A stretch of DNA of 64,000 nt from positions 320,001 through 384,000 of the forward strand of contig CAWDTA010000005.1 of NCBI GenBank assembly GCA_963805085.1, in the 5' to 3' direction. The stretch comes from an uncultured Veillonellaceae bacterium (GTDB taxonomy: Bacteria; Bacillota; Negativicutes; JARBTT01). Position numbers and translations under genes: made by a program. Shown one piece after another: positions 22,695 through 63,315 of the stretch (position 1 is the first letter of the stretch; each line of letters begins with the position of its first letter). The notes under the pieces were generated by a model, which ran no database searches, was not told where the DNA came from, and was given only the letters and a program-made list of their open reading frames with translations.

Positions 22695-22955
22695 GTGGAA
22701 TATCTTATGAAAGATTTAACTAAAAAAATTATGATATTAGCAATGGTTGGTATGGTGCAAATCGGATTTAGTGCAGCTGTATCAGAGGCTTCATCATTGC
22801 AAAACTTTAATCAACACAAGGTTATACGTTTCGATGATCGGCATGATGGTCTACAAGACCCAAATGATCCTCAATTGAAACCACAGCCTCAACCTCGTCC
22901 AGAACAACCTCAGCTGCAACCGCAACCAGAGCAACCGCAGCCACAACCAGAGTAA
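22695..22955 (+). CDS. Small exported protein with Pro/Gln-rich tail
   Basis: Signal peptide ending SEAS; C-terminal PQPQPRPEQPQLQPQPEQPQPQPE. Confidence 0.65.
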   Translation: MEYLMKDLTKKIMILAMVGMVQIGFSAAVSEASSLQNFNQHKVIRFDDRHDGLQDPNDPQLKPQPQPRPEQPQLQPQPEQPQPQPE

Positions 22956-23067: not shown

Positions 23068-23096
23068 TTGCAATGCATAATCTCTTGATGTATAAT
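23068..23096 (+). promoter_or_regulatory. Probable sigma-A promoter for the anf leader
   Basis: TTGCAA-17 nt-TATAAT. Confidence 0.6.
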
Positions 23097-23141
23097 CAAA
23101 ATAAGTTAAGTTATTAACTTGTTTGTCAACTTTAGTGTAGA

Positions 23142-23199
23142 GTACAATGAAGTGCCGACTGGATACGCGTGTGCGTTCTGGTTGGCACTTATTTTTTTT
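23142..23199 (+). promoter_or_regulatory. ANTAR-like hexaloop hairpin overlapping an intrinsic terminator (attenuator 1)
   Basis: gtac-AATGAA-gtgc hairpin overlaps the 5' arm of terminator aagtgccgactgga...tctggttggcactt plus T8. Confidence 0.6.
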
Positions 23200-23430
23200 G
23201 TATGTGAGGTGAGTATAGTGTCGATTGATAGCGCCTTGATTATATCAGCATCAATGACAAGAAGTTTGACAGGAGTGCAGGTAGTGATATTGGGTGATGT
23301 TAAAGTAGATGCATCTTGGTCATATGGATAGATGAGAATTGAAGTTTCTAGTAAAAATTTTGTAATTGAGTAGTACCTATCTGTTTAGAGTATCAGTCGA
23401 CATTTTATAATCGGAAATAGTCATAACATG

Positions 23431-23700
23431 ATTCATGAGTATTCGTGGTACCCATGGATTAAAATAAAAACCTTCATGAGTATTCGTGGTACTCATAAAG
23501 GTTGTGAAGATCATAATTCCAGTGGTGCTAGGTTTATTTGTTGTACCCATTTTTTGTCTGCTACGATAGCTTCATCAGCATTTTAAGGGGGTGATTTTAT
23601 ACGCATAGAAAAACAAAAGGCTTCATGAGTATTCGTGGTACTCATGAAGCTAGGCAAATTATCTATTCCCAGTGGCACTAGGTTTATTCAATTTACCCAT
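23431..23700 (-). ncRNA. Putative tandem antisense structured RNA (two full units plus a third terminal hairpin)
   Basis: Three copies of ttcatgagtattcgtggtac(t/c)cat hairpin (23431, 23469, 23619); two copies of ccagtgg..ctaggtttatt.....tacccat (23519, 23669); G-U pairs and U-tracts favour the minus strand. Confidence 0.65.
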
Positions 23701-23705
23701 TGAAC

Positions 23706-23734
23706 ATTATAACACTTTGCTTTTCCTTTTTCAA
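23706..23734 (-). promoter_or_regulatory. sigma-A promoter (extended -10) driving the antisense RNA
   Basis: Minus strand TTGAAA-17 nt-TATAAT with TG one base upstream of -10; predicted start ~23700. Confidence 0.7.
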
Positions 23735-23786: not shown

Positions 23787-24671
<885 letters not shown>

Positions 24672-33897: not shown

Positions 33898-34003
33898 TAA
33901 AAAATGCCAGGTTGCAATTTTAATGCAACCTGGCAATCGTAGATTTTAATCATCCTTAGATCCATAGCTTTGCGTCCCTTCTTTTCAGAAGGTTTGCCTT
34001 AGG
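33898..34003 (-). ncRNA. c-di-GMP-I (GEMM) riboswitch with terminator upstream of MCP
   Basis: Minus strand GGCAAACCUUCU-GAAA-AGAAGGGACGCAAAGCUAUGGAUCUAAGG...ACGAUUGCCAGGUUGC overlapping terminator ugccagguugca/ugcaaccuggca plus U-run. Confidence 0.92.
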
Positions 34004-34343
34004 TATTCCTTTGTCTAATTACGTAATTCGACAAATTTTTTAAAAAATCCTGCATAGTTTTATTTCTGGAGGATTAATATTGATTTAGTATAAAAGCAGA
34101 GCAAAAGTATATAAAGTATTGGGTGATTTGTAATTTTTATCTTTTTATTCCTAATTGTTATATTCTACTTTGCATAAAATAAAAAAATGTTTATTATTTT
34201 ATGGGAGTAATCATGGTAAAATATATTGACAATACGCAATGAGTGTTTTACTCTGTTCATTATGCAATTCATTTATTTTAGGAAATAAATAGAATCATTA
34301 TTTAAGATAGCCGTTAGTTTTACAAAGGATAGGAGGGATTATT

Positions 34344-55002: not shown

Positions 55003-55079
55003 CGGGGCATGGCTCAGTTTGGTAGAGCACCTGGCTTGGGACCAGGGGGTCGCAGGTTCGAATCCTGCTGCTCCGACCA
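55003..55079 (+). tRNA. tRNA-Pro(TGG)
   Basis: Cloverleaf CGGGGCA...TGCTCCG-A-CCA; anticodon stem cctgg/ccagg, loop cttggga. Confidence 0.95.
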
Positions 55080-55085
55080 TTAATC

Positions 55086-55162
55086 GCGCCTGTAGCTCAG
55101 TTGGATAGAGCAACGGCCTTCTAAGCCGTGTGTCGAGCGTTCGAATCGCCCCAGGCGCACCA
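55086..55162 (+). tRNA. tRNA-Arg(TCT)
   Basis: GCGCCTG...CAGGCGC-A-CCA; anticodon stem acggc/gccgt, loop cttctaa; one A-C mismatch in T-stem. Confidence 0.93.
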
Positions 55163-62969: not shown

Positions 62970-63102
62970 CCTGTTCCCACGCCCATCCCTTAGTTGGTTT
63001 TAACTCCAAATTAATATTGCTATAATTAAAATTGATAATAATTATAGCAATATTAAGATGAAAATATAAATATAAATTCTGTTAGGTCAATAATATATAT
63101 TT

Positions 63103-63175
63103 GGCAGACTTACTGAAAAGTAAGGACGTAAAGTTGTGAGTCTGAGGACGATTGTCTATAATTGCTAGGTTTCCC
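63103..63175 (+). ncRNA. c-di-GMP-I riboswitch, divergent copy
   Basis: GGCAGACUUACU-GAAA-AGUAAGGACGUAAAGUUGUGAGUCUGAGG...AUAAUUGCUAGGUUUCC upstream of MCP-like gene. Confidence 0.7.
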
Positions 63176-63315
63176 TTGGAAGAGGTACTGAAACCAAGGT
63201 ATTTATCTGGGCTTTTGGTGTTTACATTCGGGGGAAAAAAATTTAGGGGAGTTTGTTCATTAAATCAGTTACAAACAAACTCTTGTCTAATTTTTAATAA
63301 AGGAGAATAATACTA

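Follow-up and report, generated by a model that had tools for sequence, protein, structure and literature searches.

Why should a near-consensus promoter just upstream of a nitrogenase gene point away from that gene? This question is raised by a locus in a 64,000-nucleotide (nt) stretch of DNA from an uncultured Veillonellaceae bacterium of the class Negativicutes (GenBank assembly GCA_963805085.1, contig CAWDTA010000005.1, positions 320,001 to 384,000; hereafter the window, in whose numbering positions are given). A first-pass annotation, made from the letters of the sequence, had proposed that tandem antisense structured RNAs lie here in the leader of anfH, the first gene of an Fe-only nitrogenase operon. 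We followed this proposal computationally, and show here the anatomy of the RNA gene, its conservation, its covariation, the strand on which it lies and its linkage to nifH. The antisense RNA is one of a hitherto undescribed family of RNAs conserved across Negativicutes.

A predicted antisense RNA gene in the anfH leader

Unit A, a complete small RNA (sRNA) of approximately 90–95 nt, occupies positions 23606–23702 of the minus strand, opposite the leader of anfH (23844–24671, plus strand, assigned with Pfam and NCBIfam), and is recognized by its predicted fold, a terminator scan, a match of 106.3 bits to covariance model R1 (described below) and covariation. A promoter scan recovered the proposed minus-strand σA-type promoter at 23706–23734, with TTGAAA, a 17-nt spacer, TATAAT and a TG extension (11/12 match). 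The predicted fold likewise agrees with the ~90-nt product first drawn. An 11-base-pair (bp) P1 stem (23699–23689 with 23661–23651) is followed by an internal loop and an inner hairpin (P2; CCUAGU/ACUGGG with a 3-nt GCC loop, 23682–23677 with 23673–23668), which gains a U-A pair over the earlier drawing; next come a perfect 12-bp terminator stem with loop CCACGAA (23650–23639 with 23631–23620) and a U-tract (23619–23608). Over these 95 nt (23702–23608) the minimum free energy was −34 kcal/mol (z = −5.9), and 0 of 200 shuffled sequences were equally stable.

The unit is repeated, as had been noticed, about 150 nt further on. Two direct-repeat families (D1 and D3) place unit B (23457–23552, minus strand, 64.8 bits with R1) at an offset of 149–150 nt from unit A. 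It retains the 5′ AAAUGGGUA and the AAUAAACCUAG..CUGG core, together with a 14-bp terminator (23503–23469) that has a U-tract; a P1 closing strand was not predicted in its fold, and no good promoter of its own was found (best candidate TTAAAA-17-TAGCAG, 7/12). The scan for terminator-like hairpins on the minus strand returned 23650–23620 and 23503–23469. Hairpin C (23435–23455, minus strand, AUGGGUA-CCACGAA-UACUCAU) repeats just the 3′ hairpin for a third time, without a U-tract, and is weak when taken by itself (z = −1.8). Allowing up to one mismatch, the window contains three occurrences of the 21-nt hairpin core, against 0 expected, in line with the three copies originally described. Downstream of anfH the operon continues with nifI1, nifI2, anfD, anfG and anfK (Pfam and NCBIfam equivalogs); the ANFD, anfG and anfK equivalogs were all above cut-off, which identifies the neighbouring operon as that of an Fe-only nitrogenase.

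Evidence for the structure came from related units. Model R1 was built from a MAFFT alignment (A3) of nine complete units from different genera, in which RNAalifold recovered P1, P2 and the terminator, with 8 of the 25 pairs already compensated. Covariation, strand and loop counts were taken from alignment A5, in which 88 units were fitted to R1, a procedure that favours the pairing figures: 91.2% of pair cells held standard pairs, and 25 of the 25 pairs varied on both sides. None of 500 shuffles reached any of five covariation measures, and pairing fell to 31–44% in controls with slid partners. Terminator stem cells were paired in 99.2% of cases and P1 cells in 74–79%. Both P1 and P2 covaried, type-B units lacked P1, and the internal loop was conserved on one side only.

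The same alignment defines the strand. G·U pairs filled 265 cells versus 38 cells with A·C or C·A, an excess which implies that the fold exists on the anti-nifH strand and is broken on the sense strand, and R1 gave approximately 30 bits or less on the sense strand versus 106 bits on the other. The proposal of an RNA antisense to the nitrogenase leader is thus far supported. A different explanation would be that the functional element is a nifH-sense leader structure or protein site, or a double-stranded DNA operator made of the palindromes ATGAGTA-N7-TACTCAT, and that the antisense promoter is incidental. Such an element would suit the constant orientation relative to nifH, the palindromic hairpin core and the occurrence of the loop in both orientations (see below), but the G·U excess favours the anti-nifH strand, sense-strand matches to the model are weak, covarying stems are unexpected of a DNA operator, and it is only on the antisense strand that promoter and U-tract are conserved. 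We consider this explanation extremely unlikely.

The RNA was also examined for coding potential. The annotation had seen no open reading frame (ORF) downstream of the minus-strand promoter, which needs one qualification, because a 57-amino-acid ORF (23377–23550, minus strand) begins at the AUG of unit B. We take this ORF to be noncoding: AUG is present at the AUGGG position in 44 of the 88 units only, which argues that the RNA is not a small ORF. A near-leaderless small ORF (MGKxNKP) starting from AUGGG was rejected on this count and on differences in unit length seen by eye. A K-turn or pseudoknot in the internal loop, judged by eye only, found no support.

Terminator loops varied in the 88 units, with CCACGAA in 24, UUCGUGG in 13, CCGCAAA in 12, CUGCGAA in 7 and other sequences in the remainder, and both orientations of the loop occurred. 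All five hairpin tips in the window carry CCAC, as had been observed; within the family CCAC is no general feature, being found in 24 of the 88 terminator loops and flipped or replaced elsewhere. The kissing-type loop suggested for the window proved to be a family feature. A YUNR motif starts the terminator loop in 82 of the 88 units, on the sRNA itself in 30 and on its sense complement in 52, compared to ~14% of random 7-mers, a figure that overstates the evidence in that related units are not independent.

Distribution, novelty and linkage to nifH

No match to Rfam 15 was obtained at the site at gathering thresholds, and with E-values (E) up to 10 only chance-level matches appeared, the best sub-threshold one being SpR18 (20.9 bits versus a threshold of 60). 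The literature, supplements being outside the search, yielded no account of a structured or antisense RNA located upstream of nifH in Negativicutes or Firmicutes, and no paper on Pelosinus or Sporomusa was among the matches listed (12 of 70) in a further search. The view that this structured RNA lies outside the known riboswitches is therefore upheld. The ANTAR hit tables in the supplements of PMC3369931 may list the sense-strand attenuators described below.

Of 40 other class genomes searched with BLAST, 11 contained related sequence. With R1, the RNA was found in 53 of 151 class genomes (the window's own included) and in 24 of 67 genera, often in 2–5 copies, and switching the filters off revealed weaker variants upstream of nifH in additional genomes. 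When one genome per species was scanned for the exact pattern, 13 matches were obtained, 9 of which were titled Pelosinus, Sporomusa, Propionispora or Negativicutes; the remaining 4 were titled only Bacillota bacterium. NifH-family genes were present in 100 of the 151 class genomes, and 52 of the 53 RNA-positive genomes were among these 100. The single RNA-positive genome without a NifH-family gene was represented by a 33-bit match.

The covariance-model search and tabulation of neighbouring genes, which had been proposed as a check, also established the association with nitrogenase genes at the level of individual loci. After removal of L044 and L072 (near-duplicates of L040 and L071) and of matches below 41 bits, 68 loci remained, with 20 secondary units, that is, units additional to the nifH-proximal one. 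A NifH homologue lies upstream of the RNA and divergent from it in 66 of the 68 loci. Its distance from the RNA 5′ end is less than 400 nt in 60 loci and 839–1294 nt in 6, where it stands behind P-II or small genes; the other two loci (L084 and L096) have a divergent major facilitator superfamily (MFS) transporter gene and no nifH in the retrieved stretch. The NifH homologue is 82–100% identical to AnfH of the window in 23 loci and 59–66% identical in 43, and all 20 secondary units fall in loci of the former group. The gene on the far side differs by locus (transporters, ThiF, a GltD-like protein, FtsY and others). The RNA 5′ end is typically 55–143 nt from the nifH ATG, and ~45 nt of this gap is filled by the RNA's own promoter, which places the nifH promoter beyond the RNA gene.

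In 66 of the 68 loci the promoter of the nifH-proximal unit agrees with the consensus at 10 or more of the 12 positions, with a variable spacer sequence. A near-consensus promoter that opposes the sense transcript so consistently raises the possibility that convergent transcription alone matters, by interfering with the nitrogenase leader, and that the RNA product has no role. Interference would have no need of a conserved P1/P2 fold, of compensated pairs at 25 of 25 positions or of a YUNR loop, and we regard it as very unlikely to be the whole explanation.

It had also been considered that the element could be an antisense module derived from a mobile element and unrelated to anf. We rejected a mobile-element or dispersed-repeat origin, as a BLAST search of the region against its own 4.2-Mb genome gave the site itself as the sole full match, and 1 transposase was the only mobility gene among 20 flanking ORFs scanned. 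This IS200-like (Y1) transposase gene, at positions 572–1366 of locus L045, adjoins one sRNA array.

The sense leader and a possible mode of action

On the plus strand, a promoter-like site at 23068–23096 (TTGCAA-17-TATAAT, 10/12) was taken as the start of the anfH leader. Transcription would then begin near 23103, and the predicted nitrogenase leader would be ~740 nt long. An attenuator follows at 23142–23203 (fold z about −5). It consists of a mini-hairpin (GUAC-AAUGAA-GUGC, 23142–23155), whose hexaloop begins with A and has G as its fourth base, and a terminator stem (23150–23190) with a U-tract (23191–23203), the mini-hairpin overlapping the 5′ arm of the stem. With the sense promoter and attenuators upstream, the sRNA is antisense to a long leader and lies downstream of the attenuators. 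Relatives (L047–L092) show a conserved sense module, composed, in this sequence, of an operator-like AATATTGCGA(A/C)TAT, a TTGCa-17-TATACT promoter, 1–2 hairpin-terminators and AAGGAGGUG. Before each of their terminators stands a 4-bp stem that carries a hexaloop, e.g., AAUGAA or AAUGGG, and overlaps the 5′ arm of the terminator. Many relatives have two such hexaloop hairpins ~70 nt apart, each with its own terminator; one was found in the window. A hexaloop hairpin combined with a terminator was present on the sense strand of 42 of the 67 loci, as against 2 for the opposite strand and 3 for shuffled sequences.

Hexanucleotide loops with A1 and G4 are the mark of the stem-loops targeted by ANTAR regulators, as set out in the accessible part of PMC3369931. 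The genome of the window encodes two REC-ANTAR regulators, each gene standing after a kinase-sized ORF; one pair was scanned for domains, and its kinase contains HisKA_2. The predicted hairpin and terminator design of the sense leader fits ANTAR (GnfR-like) antitermination. The arrays at AnfH-like loci L013, L029, L036, L037, L045, L046, L048 and L049 terminate at a conserved long hairpin, GGGGUAUCAAUGAAC...GUUCAUUGAUACCCC, which on the sense strand is a terminator that follows a hexaloop mini-hairpin, and some secondary units there have no U-tracts. In L057–L068, the leader contains an ANTAR-like hairpin, CAAUGAAGCUU, that is almost identical in sequence to the sRNA 3′ end CAUGAAGCUUUU (e.g., 23631–23618, minus strand); this likeness could be due to chance, common origin or functional mimicry.

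A Shine-Dalgarno-like element was found between units B and A (AAGGGGGUGA, 23585–23594, plus strand), which reads UCACCCCCUU on the RNA strand, past the terminator of unit A. In most of 96 units, by rough estimate, AAGGAGGUG, often followed by UAUCG or UAUAG, is located past the RNA terminator. The same AAGGAGGUG is also present at 23204–23213 of the plus strand, directly after the attenuator and far upstream of anfH. No conserved ORF was seen after the element, as frames, lengths and starts (AUG, AUC, AUA, GUG), read by eye, vary, and a translated leader ORF was rejected because frames and lengths are not conserved. The element may belong to a leader mini-ORF, or it may act as a stabilising ribosome-binding site (RBS).

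The terminator hairpin of the sRNA had a pair probability of ~1.0 in 87 of the 88 units. No competing antiterminator was observed in the 12 nascent-RNA structures inspected, in which the 5′ arm formed small local pairs only. These results indicate that the product is a discrete sRNA and not a switch. They do not favour the earlier idea that the 5′ AUGGGUA pairs alternatively with UACUCAU of the terminator: the GGG can wobble-pair with every variant of the 3′ arm, yet the local 12-bp hairpin outcompetes this antiterminator, which was rejected. They also bear on the possibility of an antisense-acting riboswitch or attenuator, in which P1/P2 would form a sensor, the 3′ hairpin would be a regulated terminator, and read-through would continue across the Shine-Dalgarno-like element and on through the ANTAR attenuators and sense promoter. 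Such a device would account for a covarying conserved domain directly before a terminator with no ORF downstream, for promoterless secondary units in series, like tandem attenuators, and for the conserved CACCUCCUU just beyond the terminator on the RNA strand; precedents are the S-box antisense control of ubiG (in the accessible part of PMC2566862) and those reviewed in PMC9943018, likewise in part. However, besides the constitutively predicted terminator and the lack of an antiterminator, the P1 3′ strand lacks complementarity to the terminator arm, P1 is missing from type-B units, and no Rfam riboswitch matched. We therefore view a regulated terminator on this strand as quite improbable.

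Recognition of the leader may instead involve the loop. In loop-loop antisense systems a YUNR U-turn is possible in either partner, according to the accessible part of PMC4485353, and its presence in 82 of the 88 loops favours kissing-loop recognition. A role of the RNA as a protein sponge, suggested initially, is disfavoured, as ANTAR-type hairpins were predicted in 2 of the 88 antisense units compared to a shuffle mean of 9.3, and an ANTAR decoy was rejected on the same count. Seed pairing of CCAC loops with GUGG-containing RBS regions, also suggested initially, survives in one close clade (both sequences in 11 of 60 loci) and was rejected as a feature of the family.

Our preferred reading, in which belief and doubt are about evenly balanced, is that unit A encodes a discrete cis-antisense sRNA of ~90–95 nt, which is not translated and represses leaky nitrogenase transcripts. 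Sense transcription across the site, pairing of the two RNAs and the sign of the effect are what we infer from the arrangement of the leader. The nitrogenase messenger RNA (mRNA), starting near 23103, would pass the ANTAR-type attenuators first and then the stretch complementary to the sRNA. The 3′ hairpin loop of an abundant sRNA would kiss the complementary hairpin of the nascent or finished leader, with a YUNR U-turn on one of the loops, and the duplex would extend into the P1/P2 region, where the leader is expected to be weakly folded because G·U pairs of the sRNA correspond to A·C mismatches on the sense strand. The duplex might then be cleaved or the leader otherwise inactivated, with convergent transcription contributing some interference. 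This would create a threshold: in the presence of fixed nitrogen, leaky read-through transcripts would be destroyed, and in its absence strong antiterminated transcription would outrun the sRNA. Units B and C, and their counterparts at AnfH-like loci only, may serve as additional copies of the target or the RNA.

Several points weigh against this reading. The sign of regulation is a guess, and the duplex could stabilise the mRNA instead. Blocks of the RNA (AAAUGGGUA, AAUAAACC, CUGGG and GCUUCAUG) are conserved across families; as complementarity is automatic in a cis pair, such conservation is not needed for pairing and hints at a protein, ligand or trans-target partner. Promoters were found in 3 of the 20 secondary units, so that most of these units either depend on read-through of a strong terminator or are target sites only. 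In addition, the second nifH of the same genome (Mo-type by similarity; G000:C2:1896830-1898130, L112) has an AT-rich leader with a terminator and no sRNA match (best R1 score 7.7 bits), indicating that the RNA is not required for nitrogenase control. Block conservation, promoterless secondary units and an RNA-free Mo-nifH leader together leave some room for a role through a protein, ligand or trans target.

In its strongest form, this would mean that the RNA acts mainly via another partner (a chaperone, nuclease, regulator, ligand or trans mRNA), and that adjacency to nifH couples its synthesis inversely by promoter occlusion. Across families, the 5′ AAAUGGGUA and the 5′ side of the internal loop (AAUAAACC) are strongly conserved, which fits such a partner, and the A-rich internal loop with the terminator U-tail presumably resembles chaperone-binding sRNA modules. 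On the other hand, an opposite-strand gene stands upstream of the RNA at every one of the 68 loci (66 with a NifH homologue, 2 with an MFS transporter gene), which a free trans sRNA does not need, ANTAR-type hairpins are nearly absent, and the CCAC/GUGG seed is confined to one clade. We judge a main role via another partner unlikely.

A variant of the antisense reading can also be envisaged, though we see it as a long shot. P1, the internal loop and P2 might form a sensor of nitrogen or carbon status (glutamine, 2-oxoglutarate or a signalling protein) that tunes the speed of pairing between sRNA and leader and, with convergent promoters and ANTAR attenuators, produces a bistable switch. If so, what the ligand gates would be an antisense RNA and not a terminator.

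Other features of the window include an 86-amino-acid ORF (22695–22955, plus strand) with a signal-peptide-like start and a proline/glutamine-rich tandem repeat (21-nt repeat, 22911–22952), which had no Pfam match. Two cyclic di-GMP-I (c-di-GMP-I) riboswitch aptamers were detected at 33921–34008 (minus strand, 77.2 bits) and 63093–63177 (plus strand, 42.5 bits), and two transfer RNA genes adjoin each other at 55003–55076 and 55086–55159 (plus strand).

Significance and comparison with known systems

To our knowledge, nitrogenase regulation in Negativicutes and related Firmicutes, which lack the NifA paradigm, is poorly known. The locus suggests layered RNA control of Mo and Fe-only enzymes, with serial ANTAR attenuators and then 1–3 antisense RNA genes sharing one leader. 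Should the RNA set a threshold, it would explain the tight off-state of a costly, oxygen-sensitive enzyme and would offer a compact, portable control module for nitrogen-fixation engineering.

Among sRNAs, NfiS of Pseudomonas stutzeri and sRNA154 of Methanosarcina mazei are reportedly tied to nitrogenase expression, and NsiR1 of Anabaena is said to occur as tandem promoter-plus-terminator repeats. All three are reportedly trans-encoded and pair imperfectly, none being antisense within a nifH leader; the present RNA is from different phyla and has no sequence relation to them. EutX and Rli55, by what is reported of them, are sRNAs that sequester ANTAR proteins. The antisense RNA, having almost no ANTAR-type hairpins, is not a EutX-like decoy by the hairpin criterion, and we know of no antisense sRNA gene inside an ANTAR-controlled leader. 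The sense leader, with its A..G.. hexaloop mini-hairpins overlapping terminators, is similar to the Geobacter nifH CAGGCAANGGCGCC element of GnfK/GnfR, as far as the accessible part of PMC2995071 describes it, and to the ANTAR motif of EutV/NasR targets in that of PMC3369931, in a genome that encodes REC-ANTAR regulators.

Unlike antisense riboswitches, the present RNA has no known aptamer or predicted switchable terminator and lies inside the 5′ leader, not downstream of the operon. The B12 riboswitch/AspocR of Listeria is reportedly an antisense-acting riboswitch. A likeness in layout is provided by the S-box antisense to ubiG-mccBA in Clostridium acetobutylicum, in which, in the available portions of PMC2566862 and PMC9943018, a structured domain and terminator are convergent to the operon and without an ORF.

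The remaining comparison is with plasmid countertranscript RNAs (ctRNAs) such as RNAI, CopA and pIP501 RNAIII. The present RNA differs from them in being chromosomal, linked to nitrogenase and arranged in tandem units with blocks conserved across families; it has no Rfam ctRNA match (the best, ctRNA_pGA1 with E = 1.2, was at another site), and the nitrogenase leader shows no induced terminator downstream. It shares with them a short untranslated RNA that has its own strong promoter and lies opposite the 5′ leader of its putative target. Stable stem-loops, an intrinsic terminator and a YUNR U-turn in the loop of either partner are further common features, the last as described in the portion of PMC4485353 available to us. 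The family would thus represent a chromosomal case for kissing-loop antisense recognition, with natural 'loop-flip' variants.

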